Source of the DNA: an uncultured Gammaproteobacteria bacterium
GTDB taxonomy: Bacteria > Pseudomonadota > Gammaproteobacteria > Steroidobacterales > Foliamicaceae
Reading direction: 5' to 3'
Length of the DNA stretch: 64,000 nt
NCBI GenBank assembly: GCA_964392625.1
Contig: CAYMQG010000080.1
Coordinates: 13,335 to 77,334, forward strand
Shown: positions 48,226 to 63,532 of the stretch, one piece after another
Position numbering within the stretch: position 1 is the first letter of the stretch
Layout of the letters: every line of letters begins with the position of its first letter
Made by a program: the position numbers and the translations under genes
Notes under the pieces: model-generated
The model's database searches: none
What the model saw: only the letters and a program-made list of their open reading frames with translations
Told to the model about the DNA's origin: nothing

Positions 48226-49323
48226 TCAGGGCCAGTCGCGCGAAACGCTGACGAAGGACCCCCTGGACTGCGAGGCCATCAGCCAGTAGTAGCCGGTGGC
48301 GGCCGGATCCCCGTCCATCGGGTAGAACAGCACATTGACCGGAATCCCCGAGGGCAGATCGCGCACCGCGCGGGTAAAGAACCGTTCGCGCGCCCGCGTA
48401 TCCACCCATCCGACGCGCGAGGGAGGGCTGGCGCCCTGCGTCGGCAGTCCGTCGGTCAGCAGGTACACGTTGTCCGGCAACGGCTGCATCGCGCGTATCG
48501 CGCGCATCGCCGCATGCAGGCTGGTACCGCCCCTCGGCGCGAACTCGCGCAAGGCCTCGATCGCTTCGGTCACCCGCGCACCGTCGGCGACGCTGAGCCA
48601 CTCCCCGTCCGTGCCCTCAAGAATGCTCCTGTGTTCCACCCCGAAGATATAGACCTGAAAACGCTGCTGCGGCTCCAGGCGCGTGGTGATCCAGTCGACC
48701 GAATTCACGACCTGGACCCACTTCGGGGCGCGGGGTTTGAGTTCCTCTTCCATCAGGCGAAAGCGCAACACGTCGATATAGGTGCGCCCCAGCATGCTTG
48801 CGGACGCATCCACGAGGATCATTACCCGGTCGCCGCCCATCTGCATGCCGGTCAGGTATTGCCGCGCGCCCTCGCCCTCGAAACCGCGCACGCGCTGCCC
48901 CGCTCCTTCCTCCGCCTCGGCGACCCGCGCCTCAAGTTCCTGCTGCATTTCCCTGAGCCGGTCCACGTCGGCCCGCAGCTTCTCTACCGACTCCTGGCTC
49001 TGCGTCCCCAGGCGCTCGTATTCCGCCAGTTCGGCCAGCAACGCGGCAAGCCGTTCGCGCAGCTTTCTCAGCTCCTCGATGGCCGTTGCGCGGCGCTCGT
49101 CGAGCGTATCGCGCTCACCCCGCAACTGCAGCAGGTCCTTTCGCCCCTCCAGGACCTCCTCTTCGAGGCGCGTGGACTCGCTGAGCAGATCGATACGCTC
49201 GGCGTCCGCCCGCAAGCGCACCTGGGCGTTGATGATCACGAAGAACAGCACGACCGCGCCGAAGCCGCAGGAAATGATGTCCAGAAACGACATGCTGAAT
49301 ACGTGAAAGCGCCTACGAGCCAT
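48226..49323 (-). CDS. ExbD/TolR/MotB-like TM(Asp) - coiled coil - von Willebrand factor A (vWA) protein
   Basis: The N-terminus MARRRFHVFSMSFLDIISCGFGAVVLFFVI has a basic cytoplasmic tip and an Asp at the start of the single TM, as in ExbD, TolR and MotB. About 110-120 aa of heptad-rich charged helix follow. The vWA domain has an intact MIDAS (VMILVDASAS ... GGTSL ... VYLLTDG). The start overlaps the upstream gene by 11 nt. Confidence 0.75.
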   Translation of the reverse strand: MARRRFHVFSMSFLDIISCGFGAVVLFFVIINAQVRLRADAERIDLLSESTRLEEEVLEGRKDLLQLRGERDTLDERRATAIEELRKLRERLAALLAELAEYERLGTQSQESVEKLRADVDRLREMQQELEARVAEAEEGAGQRVRGFEGEGARQYLTGMQMGGDRVMILVDASASMLGRTYIDVLRFRLMEEELKPRAPKWVQVVNSVDWITTRLEPQQRFQVYIFGVEHRSILEGTDGEWLSVADGARVTEAIEALREFAPRGGTSLHAAMRAIRAMQPLPDNVYLLTDGLPTQGASPPSRVGWVDTRARERFFTRAVRDLPSGIPVNVLFYPMDGDPAATGYYWLMASQSRGSFVSVSRDWP

Positions 49324-50725
49324 CGCCGCCCACCTCGCGCGTGATCAGGAACTCCAGCGGCCCCACGCCCACCACGTCCCCCCCGCGCAATGGCGCCGAA
49401 TCCGCCACCGGCGCGCCATTCAGGTTGGTTCCGTAACGGCTGTGGTCATGCAAAACCGCCTGTCCATTCTCCAGCACCACGGTGCAGTGGTGTCGTGAAA
49501 TTCCACCTTCCGGCGAGAGCACGATCGACAGGCCCCCGGACTGCGGAGACGAGCCGAGATGCAGGCCTTCAGCGCCTATCCGCCAGGCCCGGCCGCCGAA
49601 CACGACGTGCGTCGGCGTCCGTTCTCCCCCTTCCCCGTCGCCGCCGGCAGGCGGCGCAACTCCATCCGGCCGGGAAATTCGCCCCGTGTCCGGCCCGCCG
49701 GGCAAGTCGAGGGCCGGCAAGGACGTAAGCAGCACATAGCGATCCCTCGCTCCCGACGCAGGACCGAAACGCTCCAGCGCGCCCAGCGCCGCGGCGCCCG
49801 CCGGCAGGACCTGGACCTCGGCGGCGAGCAGGCGAGCGAACACGTCGGCGCAGCCGGGAACCTCGGCGAGGACCCCCGACAGGTATATGTCCGCTGCCTC
49901 GGGGCCCGTGCACCACGATCGCATGCGATTCCCCGCCCCCCCCAACAGCCGCTCGACCGAGACAAGAAAGTCATCGCGGCTCAGGATCGCAGTGGCGGTT
50001 ACGGGCGCCGCTTCAAGTTGGGCCCTGAGCTCGCCGCCGGTCAGGACAGCCTGAAGCCATGAGTCCAATCGGTCGGCCAGTTCCTGTTCGGTGGCGGGCA
50101 GATCCAATGGATCAAAACGGGAACCCGCCACGAACCGGCCGGCAACGTAGCCGGTCATGGCCGCTCGGAGGTGACGCAGTCCCGGGCGGCCGTCGTACAG
50201 AATCTCCTCGCGCCGGATTCGGCCGTCGCGCGGCATGAGCCGGGAAACCGCCAAACGCTCGGGGGTAGCTTCAATGTGCAGGCAGGCGCGGCCCGCCGCC
50301 GCGCCCCGCACCGCGGCCACCCCGCTTTCGACCAGCCCGGCCACCGGCAGCCCGGCTTCCTCGGCGATGCCCAGCAGCAGTGCAAGGCGGTCTTCCGCAA
50401 CGCCCGGCGGAATGACCAGCACCACACCGCTTATGTCTCCCACGGATTGCCGAAAGCGCTCCCACAGCCCCTGCATTTGCCCGTGGGCCAGGTCGGCATA
50501 GCTGCGATATCCCCGCGCCGGCCTGGGCAGGGGCTCATCCGACAGCATTTCCCAGTAATTGCGGTAACTGCGCGCGGGGTCGCGCCGCGCCTCTTCGGCC
50601 GCTTCCCGTCCGAACGCCACCCGGCGCTTTTGCACCAGCGCCACGCCCGGCTCGTTGAACAGCACTCCGGCGGCGGTAGCGCCTACCAGCGCCGCTCCAT
50701 TGACTTCCAGCGCGACCAGCGCCAT
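49313..50725 (-). CDS. Hsp70/actin-fold (degenerate ATPase motifs) protein with C-terminal FHA domain
   Basis: The N-terminal roughly 340 aa align by eye to the DnaK NBD (VVLVIPPGVAEDRLALLLGIAEEAGLPVAGLVESGVAAV vs [37 protein letters not shown]), but the phosphate-1/2 motifs are lost. The C-terminal FHA reads GGISRHHCTVVLENGQAVLHDHSRYGTNLNGAPV...GDVVGVG. No signal peptide. Confidence 0.7.
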   Translation of the reverse strand: MALVALEVNGAALVGATAAGVLFNEPGVALVQKRRVAFGREAAEEARRDPARSYRNYWEMLSDEPLPRPARGYRSYADLAHGQMQGLWERFRQSVGDISGVVLVIPPGVAEDRLALLLGIAEEAGLPVAGLVESGVAAVRGAAAGRACLHIEATPERLAVSRLMPRDGRIRREEILYDGRPGLRHLRAAMTGYVAGRFVAGSRFDPLDLPATEQELADRLDSWLQAVLTGGELRAQLEAAPVTATAILSRDDFLVSVERLLGGAGNRMRSWCTGPEAADIYLSGVLAEVPGCADVFARLLAAEVQVLPAGAAALGALERFGPASGARDRYVLLTSLPALDLPGGPDTGRISRPDGVAPPAGGDGEGGERTPTHVVFGGRAWRIGAEGLHLGSSPQSGGLSIVLSPEGGISRHHCTVVLENGQAVLHDHSRYGTNLNGAPVADSAPLRGGDVVGVGPLEFLITREVGGDGS

Positions 50726-50741: not shown

Positions 50742-51539
50742 TCAGTCGCCCTGCAGGCGGCGGATCAGCCGTTCGTCGCAGTAATCCGAGGTCTCGAAGA
50801 CCAGTCGCTCCTGCAACAACTGAAGCTGGTGGACCAGGAACATGATGAAAATGCTGACCAGCAGGGCAAAGAAGGTGGAATTGAAGGCCACGCCGAGGCT
50901 CTCGGTAACGCCGCTGATGTCGCCTTCCACGGCCCGATAGGCAAGCGTCAGCGCCTGGCCGATCCCGCGCACGGTGCCGATAAAGCCGATCGAGGGGATC
51001 GCCCAGGCGATGTATCGGATCATCGACAGTTCGGATTCCAGTCGCTCGGCTTCGGCGTTGACCAGCGTCTGTGTAGCCGAAGAGACGTCCTGCACATTGC
51101 CCGTGGCGCCGAAGCGCTGCAGCGCGCTGAGCAATACGCGCGGCAACAGCAGGCGTTGCTGCGATTCGGGCAGCGCACGCAATTGGCGCGCGTGCTCGCG
51201 CGTGTCCTCGGGCAGTATGCGCACGCCTTCCGCCAACGGCAGCAGATCGCGCTGCAGCAGCGAGCGCTCGCGCAGCGCCCCACGCGCCTTGTAGCCCATG
51301 ATCGCCAGCGCCCAGAGCGCCAGGATCAGGCAGGCCTCCTGCTCGAAGTCGCGCACGATCACGTACAGCGAGCGTTCGGGCACGTACTCGGCGTCCTGTT
51401 CCAGCAGTATCCGCTGCTCTTCCATGACCGCGTTGGCCTGCGGTCGGATCCAGGCCACGTACATCGCATGCACCAGGATCACCGACAGGAACAGCGAAAA
51501 AAGCTGAAAAACGAATTCGACCGGTAACTGTCTTCTCAT
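50742..51539 (-). CDS. MotA/TolQ/ExbB proton-channel family protein
   Basis: 265 aa. Two N-terminal TMs, a cytoplasmic insert, then the family core IRYIAWAIPSIGFIGTVRGIGQAL ... GVAFNSTFFALLVSIFIMFLVHQL (conserved Pro-x-x-G-x-x-GT and the last TM). Confidence 0.8.
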   Translation of the reverse strand: MRRQLPVEFVFQLFSLFLSVILVHAMYVAWIRPQANAVMEEQRILLEQDAEYVPERSLYVIVRDFEQEACLILALWALAIMGYKARGALRERSLLQRDLLPLAEGVRILPEDTREHARQLRALPESQQRLLLPRVLLSALQRFGATGNVQDVSSATQTLVNAEAERLESELSMIRYIAWAIPSIGFIGTVRGIGQALTLAYRAVEGDISGVTESLGVAFNSTFFALLVSIFIMFLVHQLQLLQERLVFETSDYCDERLIRRLQGD

Positions 51540-51546
51540 CGATTGC

Positions 51547-52065
51547 TCACTGGTGTCGCGGGGGGCGGGGCGTCAGGACACGCCGAAGATATGCGCTGCC
51601 CTCGTCCCAGCCCTTCGTGTGCGGCGACTCGGGAAACTCCAGCTCGGCCACCGCGCAGGTAGGGAACTTTCCGTAGAGCACCGCGAAAGCCTCCTCTTCG
51701 CCTTGGCCGGCCAGGTACAGCGCCAGTTCCTGCAGGGCGGGATTATGGCCCACCACCATGATGTCGCCGGTGCCCTCCGGCAGTGCGTGCAGGCACTGCA
51801 GCACGGTTCCCGGACTGAAGGTGTACAGCCGTCGCATGACCTCGATGCTGAGGTCGGCGGGAAGGCTGGGCAGGACACCGCACAGCGTCTCCACCGCCCT
51901 GCGTCCGGCGGAACACAGGATTCTCTCGGGGGCGCATCCCACGGCCGCCAGTTTCTCTCCCATCGCGGGCGCATTCTTCCGGCCCCTGGGGGCCAGCGCC
52001 CGGTCGAAATCGTCGGCGGAATACGGCCCCGCCTTGGCATGACGCAACAGCCACAGGCGCTTCAT
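51547..52065 (-). CDS. sixA: SixA-type histidine-phosphatase-superfamily protein
   Basis: MKRLWLLRHAKA (RHG/RHA catalytic motif) ... MVVGHNPAL. 172 aa from the ATG at 52065. The stop lies only 7 nt before the MotA-like start. The 1026-aa track ORF containing it is otherwise antisense to ppk. Confidence 0.8.
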   Translation of the reverse strand: MKRLWLLRHAKAGPYSADDFDRALAPRGRKNAPAMGEKLAAVGCAPERILCSAGRRAVETLCGVLPSLPADLSIEVMRRLYTFSPGTVLQCLHALPEGTGDIMVVGHNPALQELALYLAGQGEEEAFAVLYGKFPTCAVAELEFPESPHTKGWDEGSAYLRRVLTPRPPRHQ

Positions 52066-52167
52066 GACGGAACGAGGGGGGCGCGCCCTCCTCTCCAGGA
52101 ATTGCTCATAACTCCTGTATGCTACTCCGATCATGGGGCACATTCCACGCCATCCCGGAACACGCAA

Positions 52168-54375
52168 ATGACGCCCGCGTCCGCCAAGCCGCGAGCGTTG
52201 AGCGAGGTGGAACGCGTCGCCGGCCGCCTGATCAACCGCGAGCTGTCCTGGCTGGAATTCAACACGCGGGTGCTGGAGGAAGCCGGCAACGAAAACCACC
52301 CGCTGCTGGAGCGCGTGCGGTTTCTGTCCATCTCCGCCAGCAACCTCGACGAGTTCTACATGGTGCGCGCGGCCGGGCTCATGGCCCAGGTGGCGGCAGG
52401 CGTCACAAAGACCAGTGCCGACGGGCTGACCCCCGGCGAACAGCTCGAAGCCATACGCGAACAGGTAAAGAGGCTTCTCAAGGCCCAGTCCGGGCGCAGC
52501 GCGCAGTTGCTGGCCGAATGCCGCGAGGCCGGGGTGGCGGTGGTAAAGCCCGAGGAACTGGGCAAGCAGGCCCGTGAGTGGCTGTCGCGATGGTTCGAGA
52601 ACCAGTTGTTTCCGGTGCTGACTCCCCAGGCGGTCGATACGGCGCACCCCTTCCCCTTCATTCAGACCGGCTGCCTGGTGTACGTGCTGCGGCTGATGCG
52701 GCCCGCGGACAAGCACGAGATCAACGGCCTGGTCCTTGTCCCCCCGCAGATCGAGCGGTTCGTGCGTGTTCCCGGCAAGGCCCTGCGCTTCGTCGCCGTC
52801 GAGGAAATCATCGCCCGCAACTTCAGGCTGCTGTTCCCCGGAATGAAGATCCTGGGCCACGGCATCTTCCGCATCAGCCGCGACAGCGACCTTGAAATCG
52901 ACGAAGAAGCCGAGGACCTGGTACGGACCTTCGAGACCGCCCTGCTGCGGCGCCGCAGAGGCAACGTCATACGGGTGGAAGTGGCGGCCGGCATGCCGAA
53001 GAACTTCCGCCGGTTCGTTCTCAAGGCGTTCAACGCCTCGCACGCGCATGTCTTCAACATCGACGGCATGCTGGGGCTGGCGGACATCAAGCAGATCATC
53101 ACGGACCAGCGCCGCGACCTGCAGCACGAGCCGCTCAACGTGCGCTTCCCCGAACGGGTACGCGAGTATGGAGGCGACATTCTCGCCGCCATACGCGCCA
53201 AGGACTTCGTCGTGCAGCATCCGTACGAGAGCTTCGACGTGGTCGTGCAGTTCCTGCGCCGCGCCACCGACGACCCGGCGGTCGTGGCCATCAAGCAGAC
53301 CCTTTACCGCACTTCCGAGGACTCGCCGATCGTCGAGGCGCTGATCGCCGCCGCCGAGGCCGGCAAGCTGGTCACCGCCATGGTCGAGCTTCGGGCGCGT
53401 TTCGACGAAGCGGCGAACATCCGCTGGGCGCAGGAGATGGAGCGCGCCGGCGTGCAGGTCGTCTACGGCTTCATGGAACTCAAGACCCACGCCAAGGTAT
53501 CGCTGGTGGTGCGCAGGGAAGCGGGCGAATTGCGGACCTATACGCACTTCGGCACCGGCAACTACCATCCGGTCAACGCGCGCGTCTATTCGGACCTGAG
53601 CTTCTTTACCTGCGACGCGGCCCTGGGGCGCGACACCGCGCGCCTGTTCAATTACATGACAGGCTACGCGACGCCCGAGGACATGGAAAAGCTGGTTTAC
53701 GCGCCGGCTCAGATGAAAAGCAGCCTGGTCGAGTTGATCGAGGAGGAAGTCGTCCATGCCCGCGCCGGGCGTCCGGCGGAGATCTGGGCCAAGCTCAACT
53801 CGCTCGTGGACCCCGAGATCATCGACTGTCTCTACCGGGCGAGCCAGGCCGGGGTGCGGATCGAACTCTACGTCCGGGGGATTTGCTGCCTGCGCCCGGG
53901 CGTACCCGGCATGTCTGAGAACATCCAGGTGCGCAGCATGGTCGGCAGGTTCCTGGAGCACTCGCGCGTCATGTGTTTCGGCGCCGGCCACCAGCTTCCT
54001 TCCACAGAGAGCAAGGTTTACGTATCGTCCGCCGACTGGATGCCCCGCAACCTGCATCATCGCGTGGAGACACTGGTGCCGATCGAGAACGAGACGGTCA
54101 AGCGGCAGCTCGTGGAGCAGGTCCTGATGGCGAACCGCTTCGACGTGATGCAGAGCTGGCAACTCGGACCCGACGGCGCTTACCGCCGCCTTGACCATCA
54201 ATCGGGCGATTTCAGCGCCCACACCTGGTTCATGACCAATCCGAGCCTTTCCGGCCGCGGCAGCGCCCTGCGGGAGTCGCGTCCGGCCATGCCCGGCGAA
54301 CTGTTTCCCGAGACCGGGGGGCCCACCGCCGCGGAAGACGAACCCCGCCCGACACTGGTCAAAGCCGCCGTCTGA
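52168..54375 (+). CDS. ppk: Polyphosphate kinase 1
   Basis: INRELSWLEFNTRVLEEA...PLLERVRFLSISASNLDEFYMVR, the autophosphorylated-His region ELKTHAKVSLVVRRE, and two PLD-like HKD-type C-terminal domains. ATG at 52168. The upstream 205 codons of the track ORF are rejected. Confidence 0.95.
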   Translation: MTPASAKPRALSEVERVAGRLINRELSWLEFNTRVLEEAGNENHPLLERVRFLSISASNLDEFYMVRAAGLMAQVAAGVTKTSADGLTPGEQLEAIREQVKRLLKAQSGRSAQLLAECREAGVAVVKPEELGKQAREWLSRWFENQLFPVLTPQAVDTAHPFPFIQTGCLVYVLRLMRPADKHEINGLVLVPPQIERFVRVPGKALRFVAVEEIIARNFRLLFPGMKILGHGIFRISRDSDLEIDEEAEDLVRTFETALLRRRRGNVIRVEVAAGMPKNFRRFVLKAFNASHAHVFNIDGMLGLADIKQIITDQRRDLQHEPLNVRFPERVREYGGDILAAIRAKDFVVQHPYESFDVVVQFLRRATDDPAVVAIKQTLYRTSEDSPIVEALIAAAEAGKLVTAMVELRARFDEAANIRWAQEMERAGVQVVYGFMELKTHAKVSLVVRREAGELRTYTHFGTGNYHPVNARVYSDLSFFTCDAALGRDTARLFNYMTGYATPEDMEKLVYAPAQMKSSLVELIEEEVVHARAGRPAEIWAKLNSLVDPEIIDCLYRASQAGVRIELYVRGICCLRPGVPGMSENIQVRSMVGRFLEHSRVMCFGAGHQLPSTESKVYVSSADWMPRNLHHRVETLVPIENETVKRQLVEQVLMANRFDVMQSWQLGPDGAYRRLDHQSGDFSAHTWFMTNPSLSGRGSALRESRPAMPGELFPETGGPTAAEDEPRPTLVKAAV

Positions 54376-54381
54376 CAGCCA

Positions 54382-55875
54382 GTGCCGGGCGTATTGCGAA
54401 CCAGCCCCGCGACCCCAAGCGAGGCGCCGGTAGCCGTGATCGACATAGGCTCGAACTCCGTTCGCCTGGTCGTCTACGAAAACGGCGGGCGGGCGCCCCT
54501 GCCGATATTCAACGAAAAGGTCCTGTGCGGGCTCGGCCGCGGGCTGGACCGGACCGGCAGAATGCCCGGGGACGGTATCCGCCTGGCCCTGGAGAGCCTC
54601 CACCGGTTCGCCCGCCTGTGCCCGCAAATGGGCGTTCTTGAAGTGCAGGCGGTCGCGACCGCGGCGGTCCGGGAGGCGAGTAACGGGCCGGAGTTCCTCG
54701 ATACCGTGCGCTCCGAATGCGGCCTGGATGTCCGCTTGTTGACGGGCAACCGGGAAGCCGAGGTGTCTGCCGGCGGAGTCCTGAGCGCAATTCCCCGGGC
54801 GAGCGGCGTTGCGGCCGACCTGGGCGGCGCCAGCCTGGAACTGACGCTCCTGGACAACGGGAGTGTGGCGGAGCGCGTTTCACTGCCGCTGGGCACGGTG
54901 CGCGGAAACGGCGAGGTGTCCATCGGGGAAAGCCGGGAGACCATTCGGGGCCAGCTTGACGGGTTGGACTGGCTGCCGCGGGCGCGCGGACAGTCCCTGT
55001 ACCTGGTAGGAGGCTCCTGGCGGGCATTGGCCCGAATCCACATGGACGAATCCGGCTACCCGCTGCATGTCATACATCACTACGCGCTGGAGGCCGCCGA
55101 CGCTTCGGAATTCTGCGGGATGCTGGCCGACTGGCCCCGCACGCGCCTGGAATCGGCCAAGGGACTGCGGGCCGACCGGCTGGAGTCCCTGCCCTTTGCG
55201 GCGGTCGCCCTGCAATCCGTGCTGGAGCGCAGCGGCGCCGAGCGGGTCGTGTTTTCCGCCAACGGCCTGCGCGAAGGCTGCCTGTACGAAGCCCTGACGC
55301 CGCTTGAACAGCAGATAGATCCCCTGCTGTGGCTGTGCGAGAGCGCTGCCCGGCGCATGGGCCGCGGGGGCTCGGGCGGCGACCTTCTGGCCGGGTGGAT
55401 CGCGCCGGCGCTGGAAGGACTGGTGCCTGACAAGCTCAGGCTGGCTGCCTGCCACCTGTCCGACATCGGCTGGTCCGAACATCCCGACTACCGGGCCGAG
55501 CAGGTATTCCTGCGCATATTGCGCATGCCGCTGACCGGCGCCGATCACCGCGAACGAATCATGCTCGGCCTGGCCGTCGCATCGCGCCACGCCGCCATCA
55601 CCCCGACACTGAAGCGCCTGGGCCTCGGCACGCTCGTCGACAAGAAAGAGAAGCGCCAGGCAGTCTGTATCGGCCTGGCCATGAGGCTTGCCTACACGAT
55701 TTCCGGCGGGGCCGTCAGCGTCCTTGAGCAATTCCGCCTGCAGCGGAAACCGGAAGAACTCGTGCTGACGGCGCCGGAAGGCGCCCACATCCTGGTCGGG
55801 AACACGGTCCAGCGCCGCTTGCGCGTCCTGGCGGAAAGGCTCGACCTCGACTATCGGATCCGTCTGCGCGCCTGA
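54382..55875 (+). CDS. ppx: Exopolyphosphatase (Ppx/GppA family)
   Basis: VAVIDIGSNSVRLVVYE, DLGGASLELT and LVGGSWRALAR motifs of the ASKHA-fold Ppx/GppA. GTG start 6 nt after the ppk stop. Confidence 0.92.
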   Translation: MPGVLRTSPATPSEAPVAVIDIGSNSVRLVVYENGGRAPLPIFNEKVLCGLGRGLDRTGRMPGDGIRLALESLHRFARLCPQMGVLEVQAVATAAVREASNGPEFLDTVRSECGLDVRLLTGNREAEVSAGGVLSAIPRASGVAADLGGASLELTLLDNGSVAERVSLPLGTVRGNGEVSIGESRETIRGQLDGLDWLPRARGQSLYLVGGSWRALARIHMDESGYPLHVIHHYALEAADASEFCGMLADWPRTRLESAKGLRADRLESLPFAAVALQSVLERSGAERVVFSANGLREGCLYEALTPLEQQIDPLLWLCESAARRMGRGGSGGDLLAGWIAPALEGLVPDKLRLAACHLSDIGWSEHPDYRAEQVFLRILRMPLTGADHRERIMLGLAVASRHAAITPTLKRLGLGTLVDKKEKRQAVCIGLAMRLAYTISGGAVSVLEQFRLQRKPEELVLTAPEGAHILVGNTVQRRLRVLAERLDLDYRIRLRA

Positions 55876-55887
55876 CGGTACGGCGCG

Positions 55888-56259
55888 CTAAATATCGGTT
55901 GGCCACACTACCGGGTTGTCGGCCGACAGGGGCTCCGAAGGCGTGAACTCCTCCAGCACCTCATCGCTGCCCAGCGCCTCCTCGATGCGGGCCAGGTCTT
56001 CCTCGATCGAGGTCACCTCCGTGGACAGCTCTTCCTCCACGGGAGATCCGTCTTCTCCCCGGGCCGGCGCATCGGCCGGAGTTGCATTGGAGGGCGGGAT
56101 GCTCTCCCGCCCAGCGGGCACGCCCTCGTTGTCGGGCGCCGCGTCCTCTGCGGTCCTGTCCTGCTGCGCGAGCCCCAGCCATCCGCCCACACGTTCGGCG
56201 GCCCAGGTCAGGCCAACGGCCAGGCCGATAACGGCGACAACTGCGACGACCTTCTTCAT
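55888..56259 (-). CDS. Small N-terminally anchored/secreted acidic protein (hypothetical)
   Basis: MKKVVAVVAVIGLAVGLTWAA followed by a Pro/Asp/Glu-rich tail (…EEELSTEVTSIEEDLARIEEALGSDEVLEEF…). The ATG at 56259 forms an ATGA overlap with the stop of the FGE-domain gene. Confidence 0.6.
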   Translation of the reverse strand: MKKVVAVVAVIGLAVGLTWAAERVGGWLGLAQQDRTAEDAAPDNEGVPAGRESIPPSNATPADAPARGEDGSPVEEELSTEVTSIEEDLARIEEALGSDEVLEEFTPSEPLSADNPVVWPTDI

Positions 56260-58676
56260 TCGGGTTCCTGCAACTCGGCGTAGCGCGCCAGGCGAAATCC
56301 TACATCGAGCCTCTCCTCCTCGCCAAAATCGCGGAACGCCCAGCGCAGTTCGCGCAGCGTCCCGTGCAGCCAGCCCGAACCGCGGATCACGTAAAAACGC
56401 CCCTCCTGCGGACCGCGCGGGTCCACCTCGAAGCCGGGATAAAGCGTATCGGTGCCGTAGTAATCGCCCGTCCACTCGGCCACGTTGCCGCCAAGATCGT
56501 AGAAGCCCAGCGGGTTGGCCGGAAACGAACCGACCGGGGCCGTGAAGGGAAAGAAGTCGTTGTAGGCGCTCAGCACGTTGGTGACGAGGCTGCCGGCCGA
56601 CTGGTCCGCGTAGTTGCCGGAGCGTGCCGGAGGAGGCATGCGCTCACCCCAGGGATAGCGCGAATTCCCCGCGCCGCCCCGGTAGCGGGCCGCCCAGACC
56701 CACTCCGCCTCGGTCGGCAGGCGATAGCCGGTCCCCGGCTCGGTCACCGGAATCAGCCGGCCGGAACGGCTCTGATACTGAAGCGGCAGGTTTTCCTGCG
56801 AACTCAGCCAGTTGCAGAAGGCCGCGGCGGCCTGCCAATCGACGTTCACCGCGGGGCTGCTGTCGGCCGCCAACGAACGGAAGCGCTCGGCCCCGGAGGT
56901 GTGGTTGGGAATGAAAGCGCGAAATTCCCGGTTGGTGACTTCCTTGACGCCCAGGTAGTAGCGTTTCGTGAGCCTCACCCTGCGGCGCACCTCGTTGTTG
57001 CGCCATCCCTGCGAACCGCGCTGCGATCCCATCTCGAACTCGCCGGGGAACAGCATGACCATTGACGCTCCCTGCGACGTTTCGATTTCCGTGGGCTGGG
57101 CGGCCAGCATCTGCTGCCGCGGCGTCAGGAGTTCCACTTCCACCTCCTGCGGATAGGCGGGCTGCGGAACGACCTCGCGCGACTGCGCCACGTAGCCTTC
57201 CAGGCTGAATTCGAGCTGTTGCTCGGTTGAAGGCAATTGAAGGTCCAGCGGGGTCCGACCGGCTGGCTGTCCGTTGACGCTGACCTGCGCTCCGGACGGA
57301 CGGCTCAACAGGCGAATGGTACCCAGACGCGGCTCGAGACGAATGGTCAGGGACTGCTCGGCGCCCCGACCCAGCGTCACCGTGCGTTCCTGCGACTCGT
57401 AGCCCGCCCGGGCCACCACCACGCGGTGCGCCCGGTCCGGGCTCACCTCCACGGTCGCAGGCGATCCTCCGCGAAAGTCCCCGTCCACGGTAATGCTGGC
57501 GCCCGGCGGGTCCGTCCGCACGCGAAGCACGCCTGCGGCAGGTTGCAGGCGGATGACGGGCAGGACCTGCGGCGAGCCGGCAACCACGGTCAGCCGTTCG
57601 CGATGCGTGGCGAATCCCGGCCTGGAGAACGACAGCATGCGTTCGCCGGACAGCAATTCCACGGTTGCCGGAGTTGTTCCCAGGACCTGTCCTTCCGATC
57701 GCAATTCAGCCCCCGGCGGATCGCTGCTGGCGAGGACCTCCGCCCAGTCCGGCTCCAGTTCGGCTCTGAACGGCTCCAGGTCGCCGCCGCCCTCCACGGC
57801 CAGCGCAATGCTCAGGTCCTTGTAGCGGAGCGCGCTTACGCTCAGGGCGTAAGTGCCCGGGCTCAGCGAGATTTCCTCGCCGGGGGAAAACACCTGGTCC
57901 ACGCCCTCGATACGAATCTCCGCGCCGGCCACGGCATCCACGACCACCCGTCCGGGCAAAAGCCGCATCGCGAAGCGAAATTCCTGACTGCCTTCGCCCC
58001 CCACCTCGATCTCTTCGTCCAGCGGGTAATAACGTTCCCGTTCAGCCCTGACCCGGTACCGGCCTTTCCAGAGAAGATAGCGGGACCCCACGTGCGGAGT
58101 GGGCAGCAGCGCGTCAACCTCAACGGCAACGTCGGCGGGCTCCACTTCAATCAGCACGCCTTCCGCGGTAAACACGAAGACGGCGCTGACGCCCAGCAGC
58201 GCCAGCAGCACGCCTGCCGCCAGGCGCAACCACAGGCGGCCCTTGTGCGCCGGCACGGAGCGCGAATCTCCGGCAGGCCGGCGAACCGCTATTTCGGCCG
58301 TGGCGTCTTCGTCGTCGGCCAGTTCGGGCGGCCTCGTGTCCCAGGCCTGCGCCAGGTAGCTCACATTCAGGCGCATAGCTTCGGGCGAAAGCGAGTCCAC
58401 CGTTACCTCCGCTCCGGCAATGGCGAGCCGATCGCCTTCCTCCAGCCACTGTGCGCCGCTGATCGGCTCGCCGTTCAGCAGAAGGCCGGAAATGCCCGGA
58501 TAGCACTGCACCAGGGCCCGGTCGTCGAGGAGATTGATGCTGGCCGCCGGAGGCGCGCCGGCCGGGCCGGGGAGGCGAATATGCGCGCCCGCGCCGCTGC
58601 CCAGCAGCACGGGCAGCTTGTCCGCCGCGAGCGTGCGCTCGCCCTCGGGCAGCACGAGAACCACATCACGCGCCAT
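56256..58676 (-). CDS. FHA-like N-terminal domain - TM - multiple PEGA domains - C-terminal FGE/SUMF1 (formylglycine-generating-enzyme-like) domain protein
   Basis: 806 aa. The N-terminal roughly 100 aa are beta-rich and FHA-like (LLNGEPISGAQWLEEGDRLAIAGAEVTV), but the canonical SRxH is not evident. TM is LWLRLAAGVLLALLGVSAVFVF. Repeated PEGA-type units are present (e.g. LRVRTDPPGASITVDGDFRGGSPATVEV). The C-terminus carries FGE-sulfatase motifs (YRLPTEAEWVWAAR, GNVAEWTGDYY, RGSGW). Confidence 0.8.
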   Translation of the reverse strand: MARDVVLVLPEGERTLAADKLPVLLGSGAGAHIRLPGPAGAPPAASINLLDDRALVQCYPGISGLLLNGEPISGAQWLEEGDRLAIAGAEVTVDSLSPEAMRLNVSYLAQAWDTRPPELADDEDATAEIAVRRPAGDSRSVPAHKGRLWLRLAAGVLLALLGVSAVFVFTAEGVLIEVEPADVAVEVDALLPTPHVGSRYLLWKGRYRVRAERERYYPLDEEIEVGGEGSQEFRFAMRLLPGRVVVDAVAGAEIRIEGVDQVFSPGEEISLSPGTYALSVSALRYKDLSIALAVEGGGDLEPFRAELEPDWAEVLASSDPPGAELRSEGQVLGTTPATVELLSGERMLSFSRPGFATHRERLTVVAGSPQVLPVIRLQPAAGVLRVRTDPPGASITVDGDFRGGSPATVEVSPDRAHRVVVARAGYESQERTVTLGRGAEQSLTIRLEPRLGTIRLLSRPSGAQVSVNGQPAGRTPLDLQLPSTEQQLEFSLEGYVAQSREVVPQPAYPQEVEVELLTPRQQMLAAQPTEIETSQGASMVMLFPGEFEMGSQRGSQGWRNNEVRRRVRLTKRYYLGVKEVTNREFRAFIPNHTSGAERFRSLAADSSPAVNVDWQAAAAFCNWLSSQENLPLQYQSRSGRLIPVTEPGTGYRLPTEAEWVWAARYRGGAGNSRYPWGERMPPPARSGNYADQSAGSLVTNVLSAYNDFFPFTAPVGSFPANPLGFYDLGGNVAEWTGDYYGTDTLYPGFEVDPRGPQEGRFYVIRGSGWLHGTLRELRWAFRDFGEEERLDVGFRLARYAELQEPE

Positions 58677-58693: not shown

Positions 58694-61006
58694 TCAGATG
58701 GGATCCGTGCAGACCAGAACCAACGGCTCCGGCAGTCCTTCCGGCTCCACGACGAACTCGCGGCGCACGTCACGAAAGCCGTCACGGGTCCCGACGGCGG
58801 TGTAGGCGCCGGGGCGTAGCTCAAGCATGCGACTGTCGAAACTTCCCAGGCGGCCAACGTGAAAAATGGTCACTTCGGTGAGACCGTCGGAACGCAGCCA
58901 CACCGGCGCCGGCGTGGCTGCCACCGCCAGGGCCTGCTCGAGGCGGCCGATCTGCCCGTTAAGGCGCGCGCCCGGACCGGGAATGGCCGCGGCTTCGTCC
59001 AGCAGCCGTTTGCCGCGCTGCCAGGCATCGTCCCGGTTCAACGTCCGGGCGTTCGCGATGGTGGTTTCCAATGCATCGTCCAGCCGCGCACGCCCCTCGG
59101 CCTCCGCCAGCCCGCGTTGCGCTGCGACGATGTTCGAGTCGATCTCAAGCATGCCGCGGTAATTGGCGGCCGCCCTGGGCCAGTCTTCCGCGAACCTGCC
59201 CGCCATCGCGGCCGCCTGGAACTGCGCCAGCCGCTGCCCGCGTTCCTCCAGTTCCAGCGCGGCAAGCGCTTCGACCGGCCCGGGATCGTTCGGACGCTGT
59301 TTCCGTGCGGCCTCGAACGCAGTCCGGGCCGCTTCGACATCGCCCTCTCCCAGCGCCGCATGACCGCGCGACATTCGCGAGTTGAACAGTTGCTGATCGA
59401 TCCGGGCATTGACCGTCGACAACTCCCTGCGGGCGGACTGCCGTTCCGGGTCGACCTTGAGCACCGCCTGCCAGGCGGCCCGCTGCTCCTCCAGGCTGCC
59501 TTCCCGCGCGCTGGCCCGCGCTTCGGCCACGGCCTGCATGGTTTCCGGCAGCCGGGCGGCCCGGCGGGACGCGGACTGCACCTCCGGATCGCTCGCTCCG
59601 AGAAGAATGCCGGCCTTTTCGAGTTCCGCCAGAGCACCGGCCTGATCGCCCGATTCGATAGCCTGCAGGGCTTCTTCCAGGGCCCCGCGGCCAATATCGG
59701 GAGCCTCTTCCCGCAGTTGGCGCAGCATCTCCGCCGCCTTTCCGTATGCGCCCTGCGCGTCCGGATATTCGCGCCTGCGATAGAAATCGTCCCCTTTCCG
59801 CTCCTCGGCCATGGCCTGCTCCCAGGCCCCGCCCGACCACATGGAGGGCTGCAGGGCCGCCAGGTAATTTCGGTCCTGCAGCATATCGCCCATGGCCTCA
59901 TCGGCCGCCTCGCGCTGCATTCTCAGCAGCTGCATGTCCTGGCGGGGCGCCTCGGCCTCCTGGATGATGCGTTCGGGCGGAGGACGCCTGCTTGCGCGTT
60001 CTTCCGCGAAGCGCGGCGCCGCGAAAAACAGGACCGCGGCCGCCGCCAGCAGGAGTCCGCCCAATGCATAAGCCACCCACAGCGGCACGCCGGAACTGCG
60101 TTGCAACGCCGGCGGCGCACCGCCGGGGTCGCCGGCGCCGGCTCGAGCTCGCGCGACAATGGCGGCGGCCTGTGACGGGCCTTCGGCGGTGGCGGATTCT
60201 GCCAGTATCTCTTCCAGGGCTGCACGCACGGCCGCCATGGTCACCGGCCTCAGGGCTTCGTCCCGCGCGAGCATCGCGGTAACCAGTTCGGCCAGCTCAT
60301 CGGGAAGCTGCGGCCGCCCTTCGGGGGCGGCGGGAGCTGCCAGCTCCGTGCTGCGAATGGCCTCTTCGCTGATGTCCGGCGCGAATGGCGGATAGCCGCA
60401 CAACAACTCGTAGATGACGCAACCCAGCCCATACACGTCGTCGCTGGTCCGGGCGGAGCGGCCCTCAAGCCGTTGCGGGCTCATATAGGCCAGCGAGCCT
60501 CCGGGACGCCGGACACGCCCGTCGTCGGCATCCGGCAGCACTGCGGCGCCGAAGTCCGTCAGGCAGGCGGCGCCCGACTCGTCCAGCAAAATGTTCTGCG
60601 GCTTGATGTCGCCATGCACCACGCCTTTGCGGTGCGCGTACGCCAGGGCGTCGCAAACCGGCAGCAGGCGCCTCGCGGCGTCGTTCCAGGGTTCGCCGGA
60701 CCGCTCTCCTACATGACCGCCCGGCAGGACGGGCATGGTGAAGAAATGGCTGTTGCCGTCGGAAACGAACTCCTCCGGGCGCACGACGGCCGGATGGACC
60801 AGCGACTGGGCAACGGAGAACTCGCGCCGGAAGCGGTCGATACGCGCCGGATGCCGGGCATATTCATCCGCCAGCAACTTCAGGGCCACTTCACGGCCTT
60901 CCCGCATATCTTCCGCAAGCCACACCTCGCCCAGCCCGCCGGAGCCCAGCGGGCGGACCAGGCGGAACCGATCCGCCAGCATCTCGCCTTGCCTTTTTTG
61001 GGTCAT
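58694..61006 (-). CDS. Transmembrane Hanks-type Ser/Thr protein kinase with periplasmic TPR-like region and C-terminal PEGA-like domain
   Basis: Gly-loop LGSGGLGEVW, VALK lysine, catalytic HGDIKPQNILL, DFG, and activation segment ...YMSPQRL. TM is LWVAYALGGLLLAAAAVLFFAAP. A long helical-repeat ectodomain follows. The C-terminus is EVTIFHVGRLGSFDSRMLELRPGAYTAVGTRDGFRDV. Confidence 0.88.
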   Translation of the reverse strand: MTQKRQGEMLADRFRLVRPLGSGGLGEVWLAEDMREGREVALKLLADEYARHPARIDRFRREFSVAQSLVHPAVVRPEEFVSDGNSHFFTMPVLPGGHVGERSGEPWNDAARRLLPVCDALAYAHRKGVVHGDIKPQNILLDESGAACLTDFGAAVLPDADDGRVRRPGGSLAYMSPQRLEGRSARTSDDVYGLGCVIYELLCGYPPFAPDISEEAIRSTELAAPAAPEGRPQLPDELAELVTAMLARDEALRPVTMAAVRAALEEILAESATAEGPSQAAAIVARARAGAGDPGGAPPALQRSSGVPLWVAYALGGLLLAAAAVLFFAAPRFAEERASRRPPPERIIQEAEAPRQDMQLLRMQREAADEAMGDMLQDRNYLAALQPSMWSGGAWEQAMAEERKGDDFYRRREYPDAQGAYGKAAEMLRQLREEAPDIGRGALEEALQAIESGDQAGALAELEKAGILLGASDPEVQSASRRAARLPETMQAVAEARASAREGSLEEQRAAWQAVLKVDPERQSARRELSTVNARIDQQLFNSRMSRGHAALGEGDVEAARTAFEAARKQRPNDPGPVEALAALELEERGQRLAQFQAAAMAGRFAEDWPRAAANYRGMLEIDSNIVAAQRGLAEAEGRARLDDALETTIANARTLNRDDAWQRGKRLLDEAAAIPGPGARLNGQIGRLEQALAVAATPAPVWLRSDGLTEVTIFHVGRLGSFDSRMLELRPGAYTAVGTRDGFRDVRREFVVEPEGLPEPLVLVCTDPI

Positions 61007-61084: not shown

Positions 61085-62314
61085 TCAGGGGCGCGACAGG
61101 GACGTGCCCTCAGGCTCTTGCGCACCCGGCGTTTCAAGGTCGCCGGTCTCGCGGGCGTAGATGTCCCGCAACAGGCGGCGCCATTCACGAAACCTCTCCT
61201 CGGCGGATCCGGTCAAACGGCGGGTCTGACCTTCGAGCTCCACCACCATGGGCTCGGCCTCGGCATCGAAGGATTCGCCCACTTCGCGCAGCGCCTCGGC
61301 GTGCATCCTGGCTTCCTCGCGCCGCCCCAGGCTTCCCTGAATTCCCATGAAGCCCCCCTGGATCATGGTGCCTGTCACGCCCATGTTGTCGCCGCCGCTG
61401 GCTTCGTACGCGACAGCGCCCAGAATCCCGAGGACTCCGAGCAGCATGCGCGTATTCGCCGACCTGCGCATTTCCTCGTAACTCAGGCGGCCTTCCCGGG
61501 CCATCCGCCGCCAGTCGGTGTAGGGCCGGTCCAGCCCGTAGTAGAGGTTGGCGTAATGCTCGTTGACGGCGTCTATCAACGCGTATTCCCGCTCCCGCAC
61601 CTCGCGCATGCGGGCGACCATGGGATCGTCGGCAGCCGGCAGGCGCCTGACCTCGTACTGCCCGTCGCCGGTCTCTTCCAGATAGCCGCTGAAAGCCTGC
61701 GGCACGAGGCTCTGCCCGTAGCGCAGGTCGCTGATCTCGCGCACGCGCTGCAAATCGCCGGGACTGAACTGCGCGCGCGCCTGCAGCAGGTCGTTGGCGA
61801 TCTGGTTATAGATGTTCTGGTAGGGATCCTGACCGGGGCCGGTGTTGCGAATGTATGCCTGCTCCGCAACCAGCATTTCATAGTTCTTTTCGAACCACTG
61901 GCGGCCGGACGAGTCCCAGGCGCCGACACGCAGCTGCGCGCTATAGCCGTCCGATTGGTTGATCCTGCCCGAAATCACGACATCCGCAACCGGACTGTAT
62001 TCGGGAAGGACGCTTACCGCTCCCCAATAGCCGGTAGTCTCAAGCGTGCTCTTGAGGTGGTACGGCATGTAGCGCGCTTCGGCGCGGCGAATCTCGGGAA
62101 AGATGAAGCGGTCGTTGAGTTCCTGATCGCTCGCCTCTTCGGGCAGCCCCGCATCAAACACCAGGATGCCGACGTTCAGCAGCGATTCCGATGCAATTTC
62201 GGTCTCCGCGCGCTGCAGCCCCACCTGGGTGTACTGGACCTCGCGCGCGGACGTGCAGGCGCCCAGCACAATGATGCAGGCGGCCAGACCGAGAGTCGTG
62301 ATCGACCGGTTCAT
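61085..62314 (-). CDS. Lipoprotein of unknown function with a C-proximal glycine-zipper segment
   Basis: The ATG at 62314 gives MNRSITTLGLAACIIVLGACTS (lipobox). The later segment LLGVLGILGAVAYEASGGDNMGVTGTMIQGGFMGIQG resembles glycine-zipper membrane hairpins. ATGA overlap with the upstream gene's stop. Confidence 0.65.
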   Translation of the reverse strand: MNRSITTLGLAACIIVLGACTSAREVQYTQVGLQRAETEIASESLLNVGILVFDAGLPEEASDQELNDRFIFPEIRRAEARYMPYHLKSTLETTGYWGAVSVLPEYSPVADVVISGRINQSDGYSAQLRVGAWDSSGRQWFEKNYEMLVAEQAYIRNTGPGQDPYQNIYNQIANDLLQARAQFSPGDLQRVREISDLRYGQSLVPQAFSGYLEETGDGQYEVRRLPAADDPMVARMREVREREYALIDAVNEHYANLYYGLDRPYTDWRRMAREGRLSYEEMRRSANTRMLLGVLGILGAVAYEASGGDNMGVTGTMIQGGFMGIQGSLGRREEARMHAEALREVGESFDAEAEPMVVELEGQTRRLTGSAEERFREWRRLLRDIYARETGDLETPGAQEPEGTSLSRP

Positions 62315-63453
62315 TTTGTTTTCAACCCCATGTGCTTGCGATATTCGTCCCACAATGCCTCGCGTATGCGGGGGTCTTCTTCCTGCTCCGCCGCTTCGCG
62401 AATCTGCCGCGCCACCTGGTCCTCCTTGCCGGTAACCTCCGCAATATCTTCCGGAATCTCGATCTTCGTCTCCGGCTGCTCGCCGGGCGAGCCGTCTTCC
62501 GTCGGCCCGCCTTCTCCTTCGCCTCCGCCGGAGCCGCCACCGCTTCCGGAACTGCTTCCGCCTGCGCTGCTGCCGTCCGATTCGCTGCCCGGGCTTTGGC
62601 CGTCACCGCCAAGACCCCCGCCGCTCGCGTTGGGGATAGTCACCATAGCCCCGCCGGAGCCGCCGGACTCGCCGATCATTCCGCCCGTGCCTCCGGAACC
62701 GGCGGCGGACCCCTGTCCGGCCGATGCCATGGCGCCACGCTCACGGGCAATTTCGCGGTCGTAACCCTCCATGGATTCACGCAGGATTCCCTCGAGGTCG
62801 CCACTGCCTTGTGTGCCGCCTGCACCTCCTCTGCCGCCGGGCTCGCTACCCTGCCCGCCTCCGAAGCCACCGCCGACTCCCGTGGAACCGGCCTGCTGAC
62901 CTCCGGAACCGCCCGGCCGGCCCGAAGGCCCGCCCGCCGAACCGCTGGCGCCTCCCATGGAACCCATGGAACCCTGGGCGCCGCCCTGCGATCCCATCGA
63001 GCCCATCGAACCTCGCGAACCGCCTGGTGTTCCCATGGAGCCACCCATGGAGCCCATCGAACCGCCGGCTGAACCCATCGAACCCCGCGATCCACCGGTT
63101 GAACCCATCGAGCCCATGGAACCGCCGGACGAGCCCATTGAGCCCCCCATCGAACCGCGAGAACCGCCGGAAGAGCCCATCGAACCGCCCATGGAGCCAC
63201 GCGAGCCCCCGGAGGAACCCATGGACCCTTGCGAACCGCCCATGGAACCCTGAGAACCGCCCATGGAGCCCTGCGAACCGCCCATGGAGCCCTGCGAGCC
63301 CCCGGAGGACCCCGAACTGCCGCTGGGCGAAGGCATCGAAACCGGGGGGCCGCCGGACGGCGAGGAAACGCCTCCGGTGGTCTGGCAATTCGCCAGAACC
63401 AGCACTGCGGAGAGCGCCATACAAAAGCCTGAAATACGCACTGTTGCTTTCAT
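62311..63453 (-). CDS. Lipoprotein with extreme Gly/Ser/Met-rich tandem repeats and a conserved-looking charged C-terminus
   Basis: The ATG at 63453 gives MKATVRISGFCMALSAVLVLANCQ (lipobox). Roughly 125 aa of (G-S-M-G / GGSQ / GGSR) repeats follow, then a second Gly/Ser/Asp-rich tract. The C-terminus is EDIAEVTGKEDQVARQIREAAEQEEDPRIREALWDEYRKHMG. Confidence 0.65.
   Translation of the reverse strand: MKATVRISGFCMALSAVLVLANCQTTGGVSSPSGGPPVSMPSPSGSSGSSGGSQGSMGGSQGSMGGSQGSMGGSQGSMGSSGGSRGSMGGSMGSSGGSRGSMGGSMGSSGGSMGSMGSTGGSRGSMGSAGGSMGSMGGSMGTPGGSRGSMGSMGSQGGAQGSMGSMGGASGSAGGPSGRPGGSGGQQAGSTGVGGGFGGGQGSEPGGRGGAGGTQGSGDLEGILRESMEGYDREIARERGAMASAGQGSAAGSGGTGGMIGESGGSGGAMVTIPNASGGGLGGDGQSPGSESDGSSAGGSSSGSGGGSGGGEGEGGPTEDGSPGEQPETKIEIPEDIAEVTGKEDQVARQIREAAEQEEDPRIREALWDEYRKHMGLKTK
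62947..63327. repeat. Imperfect in-frame tandem repeat (9-nt periodicity, higher-order 18-33 nt units) encoding the GSM-rich tract
   Basis: The plus strand shows reiterated cat(g/c)ga(a/g)cc(n) units, e.g. catggaacccatggaaccctgggcgccgccctgcgatcccatcgagcccatcgaacctcgcgaaccgcc... This generates spurious ORFs in several frames on both strands (62724..63485, 62846..63424, 62957..63253). Confidence 0.85.
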
Positions 63454-63532
63454 TAAGGTTGGTCGACCCTCACATTTCAAACTAGCATACCACCGGCGCG
63501 GCCGCGGGCCCTTTGGGTATTTGATGCGCCAA

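Follow-up and report, generated by a model that had tools for sequence, protein, structure and literature searches.

How might a presumed proton channel of the MotA/TolQ/ExbB family put its energy to use when none of the genes beside it encodes MotB, ExbD or TolR? This question is raised by a stretch of 64,000 nucleotides (hereafter the window) from an uncultured Gammaproteobacteria bacterium of the Foliamicaceae (assembly GCA_964392625.1, contig CAYMQG010000080.1, positions 13,335 to 77,334), in which a three-gene operon begins with a MotA-like gene and ends with a gene for a 365-residue protein (48226..49323), here called the target. The target combines an aspartate-bearing transmembrane (TM) helix with a coiled coil and a domain of the von Willebrand factor A (vWA) type. 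The available data make it likely that this protein takes the place of MotB, ExbD or TolR at the centre of a 5:2 proton motor, with the coiled coil as a stalk and the vWA domains as its heads. All features described below lie on the minus strand of the window unless stated otherwise.

The target gene is real and conserved, and it is under strong purifying selection. Its open reading frame (ORF) starts with an ATG that follows a Shine-Dalgarno-like GAGGTGG at a distance of 6 nt, and an 11-nt overlap of this start with the stop of the upstream FHA-domain gene suggests that the two are translationally coupled. Comparisons were made across 80 orthologous loci, one genome per species, of which L001-L004 represent the lineage of the window; against the orthologues in these four, the whole-gene ratio of non-synonymous to synonymous substitution rates (dN/dS) is 0.04-0.10. 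Specifically, in the first 40 codons, TM segment included, 11-14 synonymous changes but just 1 non-synonymous change separate the target from its orthologues in L002 and L003. Such selection implies that the TM segment is translated and excludes a start codon downstream of it, a possibility that the initial annotation had raised and that the placement of the ribosome-binding site likewise speaks against. The ORF is found exactly where that annotation had put it, and all the peptides quoted there are present in the protein.

The family to which the target belongs is large. Separate homologue searches (E <= 0.001) returned at least 3,689 proteins, in a word-indexed search, and at least 5,800, both counts being made after clustering at 90% identity with only 8,000 candidates scored per search, while an exhaustive search of 50%-identity representatives gave 226 clusters at E <= 1e-30. 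Of the best 120 homologues in the word-indexed search, nearly all are 363-367 residues long and carry no annotation beyond 'VWA domain-containing protein'. The family is frequent among marine Halieaceae and Woeseiaceae, and some of the carriers in the Halieaceae have been cultured (Pseudohaliea rubra, Pseudohalioglobus lutimaris, Seongchinamella spp.). A tblastn search against plasmids found no copies of the target, and a mobile-element reading was rejected on that basis; a scan for promoters and terminators gave sites no commoner than expected by chance.

The target has one hydrophobic segment, the proposed trans-pore helix (residues 8-37; 49213..49302), which reaches a 19-residue Kyte-Doolittle maximum of 2.56. 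The helix carries the motif SFLD-x3-CGxGA, in which Asp15 (codon 49279-49281) lies near the cytoplasmic end and is invariant in all 80 loci. The same aspartate is kept in a second vWA paralogue that accompanies the target in most other lineages, and F13, L14, D15, C19, G20, G22 and A23 are invariant across both paralogue types. Where known B subunits have a periplasmic plug, peptidoglycan-binding or dimerisation domain, the target has none; what comes after its TM helix is a coiled coil and then a vWA domain.

The coiled coil continues straight on from the TM helix as a heptad-repeat helix of residues 38-139 (48907..49212), delineated by periodicity and by an AlphaFold2 model. Its hydrophobic periodicity at 3.5 residues has a power of 1.91, compared with 1.21 for the 99.9th percentile, and exceeds that of all 2,000 shuffled sequences; one heptad register holds over residues ~38-135, a span that contains no proline and is 46% charged. 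The AlphaFold2 model, a monomer built from an 18-sequence alignment, places helices at residues 12-105 and 110-139. Judged by these features of its sequence, the stalk would be a parallel dimeric coiled coil, and if it is continuous, its ~100 residues at 0.148 nm each would span roughly 15 nm. The linker that follows (residues 140-165; 48829..48906) is disordered in the monomer model, with a predicted local distance difference test (pLDDT) score of about 30-35. It nevertheless bears the near-invariant motif F.G.G.RQYLTG..GG.R, the most conserved stretch of the protein apart from the metal-ion-dependent adhesion site (MIDAS), and probably forms an interface with the other protomer or with a partner.

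The head comprises residues 166-365 (48229..48828), with the MIDAS residues D172-x-S174-x-S176, T267 and D291 and an invariant C-terminal DWP. D172, S174, S176 and D291 are invariant in all 80 loci, and position 267 is threonine in 77 and serine in 3. The AlphaFold2 model folds residues 166-360 into an alpha/beta domain (pLDDT mostly 80-93), for which Foldseek returned ITIH1, BatB (3ibs), CMG2 (1shu) and TEM8 at E = 1e-7 to 1e-6 and TM-scores of 0.57-0.66 (on the target). By sequence and modelled structure, the head is thus a vWA fold with a complete MIDAS, and metal binding is predicted. These results bear out what the initial annotation had read in this part of the protein, namely a long charged heptad segment after the TM helix and a complete MIDAS-containing vWA fold. 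Coiled-coil propensity, whose absence would have refuted that reading, is strong.

The assignment as a motor subunit draws on the operon in which the target stands. Its order is tight: the MotA-like gene, a gene for an Hsp70-like/FHA protein and the target, with a 16-nt gap at the first junction and the 11-nt overlap at the second. The MotA/TolQ/ExbB-family channel subunit (265 residues; 50742..51539; PF01618, E = 1e-14) lies 1.4 kb upstream of the target. It has about four hydrophobic helices by inspection, with two segments passing a hydropathy threshold of 1.6, and its last two helices align with Escherichia coli TolQ in such a way that T189 corresponds to TolQ T145 and T222 to TolQ T178; both threonines are invariant in 72 of 72 orthologues. 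The middle gene encodes a 470-residue cytoplasmic protein without a TM segment (49313..50725). Residues 1-340 of this protein are modelled by AlphaFold2 with a pLDDT of 85 and resemble the nucleotide-binding domains (NBDs) of DnaK and Hsc70 (Foldseek E about 1e-14, TM-score about 0.7), and its C-terminus carries an FHA domain (PF00498, E = 2e-9) that also weakly matches TIGR03354 (TagH). The phosphate motifs DxGTT and GGGT are not conserved in the alignment of the Hsp70-like protein, which may therefore be a pseudo-ATPase.

Within this trio there is no MotB, ExbD or TolR gene, a Pfam scan of the operon gave no other B-subunit candidate, and the target is the sole Asp-bearing protein with a single TM helix; nor does the 64-kb window hold a further MotA or vWA paralogue. 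The motA-fha-vwa order is kept in about 70 of the 80 loci and in several phyla, with carriers in Woeseiaceae, Chromatiales, Halieaceae, Acidobacteriota, Myxococcales, metagenome-assembled genomes labelled Alphaproteobacteria, and others. The linkage to a MotA-like gene, the lack of another B candidate and the invariance of T189 and T222 together support the reading of the target as a stator B subunit, as the initial annotation had proposed, and the invariant Asp15 of the target itself points the same way.

Several results weigh against this assignment. Pfam finds no ExbD or MotB match to the target, and a 38-column profile of its TM segment, searched against the PDB, recovered no B subunit, just NDUFB4 by chance. 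In an hhalign comparison with the N-termini of Escherichia coli TolR and ExbD, D15 was aligned on TolR D23 and ExbD D25, but not significantly (E-value of about 0.1, probability below 1%). On the head, the Pfam families VWA_2 and VWA_3 score just below threshold (25 bits, with 27 required; E = 2e-5). Lysines and arginines, counted together, are equally many on the two sides of the TM helix, such that an orientation with the N-terminus inside is favoured by net charge alone. Furthermore, two genes that commonly accompany the target elsewhere are missing here: the second vWA paralogue is absent from the 64-kb window and from L001-L004 (tblastn with the paralogue of L022), and an OmpA-like gene is absent from the window locus and from the same four loci. 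A profile of the full-length target, searched against the PDB, matched unrelated coiled coils only.

In an inverted topology, the head would lie in the cytoplasm and make the target a MIDAS scaffold of a kinase/FHA signalling module, of the sort known from cytoplasmic triads of vWA protein, kinase and phosphatase, and the MotA-like protein would have an unrelated role. This topology would suit the two cytoplasmic phospho-signalling neighbours, the FHA domain and a Ser/Thr kinase encoded further upstream, as well as the equal K+R counts. The flanks of the TM helix nonetheless differ in net charge: the Arg-rich N-terminal side, with an invariant MARR, has 3 K/R and 0 D/E (net +3), and the C-terminal side has 3 K/R and 3 D/E (net 0). 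The same type of vWA domain also occurs in two other settings. In the protein P0218 (loci L081-L083, 6001-7422), a Sec-type signal peptide, judged by eye, precedes a domain of the paralogue's type, 50% identical to the L022 paralogue, and then a domain of the target's type, 44% identical to the target and including RQYLTG. In P0219 and P0263, a BlaR1/M56 module (PF05569, E = 2e-15 and 3e-17) and its last TM helix precede the target's vWA type, which again ends in DWP. In BlaR1 proteins, the domain beyond the last TM helix is extracytoplasmic. The linker motif is kept in P0218 and in the M56 fusions. The charge asymmetry, the signal-peptide fusion and the BlaR1/M56 fusions are three independent lines that support a head outside the cytoplasm, and the cytoplasmic placement that the initial annotation had named as a danger to its reading is disfavoured by this comparative evidence. 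Periplasmic-type domains (OmpA-like, PEGA, FGE) are encoded by partners in the cassette as well, and all known 5:2 B subunits have their N-terminus inside; the inverted topology is thus decidedly unlikely.

Even with the head in the periplasm, the target might stand outside the MotA-like pentamer, as a membrane-anchored vWA adaptor in the manner of TonB or TolA or as a merely co-regulated protein, with the true pore subunit encoded elsewhere or absent. The lack of significant homology between its TM helix and those of ExbD, TolR or MotB would fit this, as would a further class of vWA proteins, distinct from the pore type, whose helices bind at the side as in TonB and TolA (PMC12204202). That class, however, has an SHLS/His motif and adjoins tolR-like genes (PMC12204202), and here there is neither a histidine in the helix nor a tolR-like gene. 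A TM aspartate is, moreover, costly unless functional, and this one is invariant in the 80 loci and in the paralogue, while the window offers no second MotA or vWA paralogue; we regard an adaptor as unlikely. A Zorya-like anti-phage defence with a MotAB-like sensor was considered too: the 5:2 complex of Zorya is MotAB-like and has a long coiled coil, and the MotA-like protein has a faint match to ZorA2 (E = 0.017). Against it, the PADLOC families match none of the three trio proteins beyond coiled-coil noise and give no ZorB match, and nuclease, helicase or other effector genes (ZorC/D, ZorE) are absent. Across phyla, the cassette keeps its synteny and nearly the same length, it lies in housekeeping surroundings (gyrA, serC, ppk), and it is not found on plasmids. 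With PADLOC yielding coiled-coil noise and the ZorA2 match alone, the defence reading was rejected as highly improbable.

The central motor subunit thus remains the preferred reading of the target, and a mechanism can be outlined for it, in which we infer the insertion into the pentamer, the 5:2 stoichiometry, the proton coupling, the MIDAS ligand and the phospho-regulation. Two copies of the target would sit in the central pore of the MotA-like pentamer, at the position of MotB, ExbD or TolR; in most other lineages, the pore pair would consist of one target-type copy and one paralogue. Proton flow via Asp15 and the Thr189/Thr222 ring would turn the pentamer and the dimer relative to each other. 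Because the target has no plug or peptidoglycan-binding domain and its stalk is continuous with the pore helix, the coiled coil would act as a shaft or tether, bringing torque or pull to the two vWA heads. If the pore helix turns, a continuous coiled coil must transmit the rotation. The stalk and the 25-residue linker could carry the heads as far as the peptidoglycan layer or past it; there, through the MIDAS cation, they would grip an acidic residue of a partner in the periplasm, on the peptidoglycan or in the outer membrane. At the cytoplasmic face, the Hsp70-like/FHA protein and the Ser/Thr kinase may gate or localise the motor through phospho-threonine binding, with a conserved T145 in a loop of the MotA-like protein as a speculative candidate phospho-site.

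The genes around the trio give further insight into the system in which this putative motor may work. Specifically, the usual cassette, as seen in L005-L080, encodes a Ser/Thr kinase, a protein with a TM helix, PEGA and FGE domains, the MotA-like protein, the Hsp70-like/FHA protein, the target orthologue, the second vWA paralogue and often an OmpA-family protein. In the window, the kinase (770 residues; 58694..61006; Pkinase E = 7e-40) has one TM helix at residues 305-334 and TPR repeats in its extracytoplasmic part; in 58 of the 80 loci, within a view limited to the 6-kb flank, the C-terminal part of the kinase is found directly upstream of the FGE gene. The PEGA/FGE protein (806 residues; 56256..58676) is bitopic, with a cytoplasmic N-domain, a TM helix at residues 147-178, three PEGA domains (E = 2e-39) and an FGE-sulfatase domain (E = 5e-43), and its orthologue stands directly upstream of motA in most of L005-L080. 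An FHA identity for its N-domain found no match in the window copy and just E = 0.02-0.03 in L022, and is left as possible. Next to it, an ORF without a Pfam match (55888..56259) encodes a small protein of 123 residues that has a TM helix or signal anchor at its N-terminus and is strongly acidic in its C-terminal half. Homologues of this small protein occupy the same position, flanked by the FGE gene and motA, in a minority of the loci (7 besides the window), and it can be counted as part of the system only with reservation. The OmpA-like protein, the PEGA/FGE protein and this acidic protein are candidate MIDAS partners, the last of them a speculative one.

The second paralogue, of ~334 residues, repeats the design of the target: its helix has the motif SFLD-x3-CGFGA, and it likewise has a coiled coil and a vWA domain, here with a DxSGS MIDAS. 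It follows the target orthologue in 76 of the 80 loci, and an OmpA-like gene is present in many. In L006-L035 (for example L022, 7089-8093), the helix of the paralogue is followed by a conserved K-I-Y/F-E-P, compared with I-N-A-Q-V in the target type, such that the two chains of a heterodimer would exit the membrane differently. P0218, in which heads of both types are joined in one chain, hints as a Rosetta-stone link that the two paralogue heads work together; it has no membrane helix or coiled coil and no adjacent motor gene, and it is encoded on Mb-size contigs with transposases flanking. The BlaR1/M56 fusions, in turn, suggest that the vWA head can double as the extracytoplasmic sensor of a signalling protease.

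The window lineage departs from this arrangement in two ways. With no paralogue at this locus, the shaft would be a homodimer here, or the partner would be encoded elsewhere. In addition, the kinase and PEGA/FGE genes are split from the trio by about 4.7 kb. The intervening region (51547-55875) holds ppk (about 52171-54375, plus strand), ppx (54382-55875, plus strand) and a gene for a SixA-like histidine phosphatase (51547-52050, minus strand), and this split is peculiar to L001-L004; the block looks like a lineage-specific insertion or rearrangement. In L002, a HicA/HicB-like toxin-antitoxin pair (7366-8168) lies between the vWA gene and a short-chain dehydrogenase/reductase (SDR) gene, at the spot that the paralogue usually occupies; a paralogue remnant was considered for this 1.1-kb gap 3' of the target and rejected, the gap holding the HicA/HicB-like pair instead.

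A related cluster occurs in the verrucomicrobial isolate Puniceicoccaceae bacterium K14 (L084, 958-11941). There, a 499-residue protein without an FHA domain takes the place of the Hsp70-like/FHA protein, genes for additional proteins of 746 and 338 residues are present, and a CsgG-family gene then follows. The 499-residue protein was tried as a homologue of the Hsp70-like/FHA protein, and the profile match (E = 0.039) was not significant. Upstream of the kinase in the window lie two lipoprotein-like ORFs, one of 422 residues without a Pfam match (61085-62353), which is found upstream of the kinase in L030 as well (45% identity), and an adjoining one (62311-63480) with long Gly/Ser/Met-rich repeats (GGSQGSM...).

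A wider reading, which we hold only tentatively, takes the cassette of kinase, PEGA/FGE protein, MotA-like protein, Hsp70-like/FHA protein and vWA subunit or subunits as an uncharacterised machine of the inner membrane and periplasm. It would be a 5:2 motor switched by phospho-threonine, with a rigid 15-nm drive shaft and metal-dependent adhesion heads, and with a homodimeric shaft in the window lineage. That the kinase and FHA partners are conserved suggests that Ser/Thr phospho-control can extend to a proton motor. The target may, furthermore, offer a simple system for the long-standing question of the mechanical role of the central dimer of such motors.

How does this proposal relate to what is already described? 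A paper of June 2025 (Mol Biol Evol, PMC12204202) treats, in its section 8, vWA proteins coupled to TolQ-like motors. Its 'TPH-vWA' class, modelled with AlphaFold3, has an ExbD/TolR-like trans-pore helix with a conserved Asp and is tightly linked to tolQ-like genes without tolR or exbD; its members come mostly as heterologous pairs, occur in Proteobacteria and Verrucomicrobia, and were traced from a seed in Idiomarina loihiensis. The target shares with this class a TM-tethered vWA domain, an Asp-bearing helix, a neighbouring tolQ-like gene and the lack of tolR or exbD, and its family likewise has paired vWA genes in 76 of the 80 loci and occurs in Proteobacteria and Verrucomicrobia. In contrast, the window has just one copy and, over its 64 kb, no paralogue, and the target family has an Hsp70-NBD-like/FHA gene between the tolQ-like and vWA genes. 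The family matches the class on every point that can be checked; the presumed orthology rests on the description given in the paper, as the Idiomarina seed sequence is not in its text or supplements. No Idiomarina entries were among the homologues listed in cluster look-ups and in a homologue search from a Halioglobus member.

The text of PMC12204202 does not contain the word 'coiled', its single match to 'FHA' is the protein name FhaC, and its TPH-vWA section names no kinase, Hsp70-like or PEGA/FGE partner. A full-text literature search found no other paper on this arrangement, and vWA partners go unmentioned in a survey of MotAB diversity from 2025. The initial annotation had regarded a stator coupled to a vWA domain as an unusual design; the architecture it described is supported, but the design is not new, the same arrangement having been proposed in PMC12204202. 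The class has already been put forward in silico; the kinase/FHA/Hsp70-like context and the single-copy variant with a split cassette seem to be undescribed.

Among characterised machines, the closest functional parallels are found in the Myxococcus AglRQS-Glt system, in which a TolQ-like pentamer is combined with two different B subunits, AglQ and AglS, the FHA domain of GltG lies at the cytoplasmic face of the motor, and the vWA adhesin CglB is at the far end (PMC11761067). The B dimer of two different proteins resembles the target with its paralogue, and the FHA domain at the motor and the vWA domain at the far end recur as well. There, however, the vWA domain is carried by a lipoprotein of its own in the outer membrane, and the B subunits are short; the Glt genes are absent here, and the FHA domain of the target operon is fused to an Hsp70-like fold and not to a TonB-like protein. 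The threonine-phosphorylation pathway of the type VI secretion system (T6SS; PpkA, Fha1, PppA) provides another parallel, an envelope machine being governed there by a membrane-bound Ser/Thr kinase together with a protein that has an FHA domain. A vWA domain is found in the periplasmic part of PpkA. In the cassette described here, the vWA domain is on the motor subunit and not on the kinase, T6SS structural genes are absent, and no PP2C phosphatase was seen. BatA and BatB are likewise bacterial vWA proteins anchored in the membrane, and BatB (3ibs) is among the best structural matches; their MoxR/DUF58 context is not found at the target locus, and Bat proteins are without an Asp-bearing pore-type helix, a heptad stalk and a MotA-like partner.

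Mechanically, the likeness is to Zorya, in which the MotAB-like 5:2 complex ZorAB has a very long coiled coil as a mechanical element. There, the coiled coil extends from the A subunit as a tail on the cytoplasmic side, and ZorB has retained its peptidoglycan-binding domain, whereas the coiled coil of the target would be periplasmic and is part of the B subunit. In known 5:2 motors, the B subunit is either anchored to peptidoglycan, as in MotB and ZorB, or hands its force to a separate tether such as TonB, TolA or GltG/J. With ExbB-ExbD-TonB and TolQ-TolR-TolA, the target system shares the A-subunit family, the conserved pore threonines, a partner with one Asp-bearing TM helix and, presumably, the delivery of proton motive force (PMF) energy across the periplasm. 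The target would unite in one chain what those systems divide between ExbD/TolR and TonB/TolA. The stalk of TonB or TolA is a Pro-rich or helical single chain that ends in a TonB-C or TolA-III head, that of the target an alpha-helical coiled coil that ends in a MIDAS vWA head. If the motor reading is true, the B subunit would be its own coiled-coil shaft with a MIDAS head, a distinct coupling design; under the wider, tentative reading given above, the machine would also be a third route by which PMF energy can cross the periplasm, beside the MotB anchor and the TonB/TolA tether.

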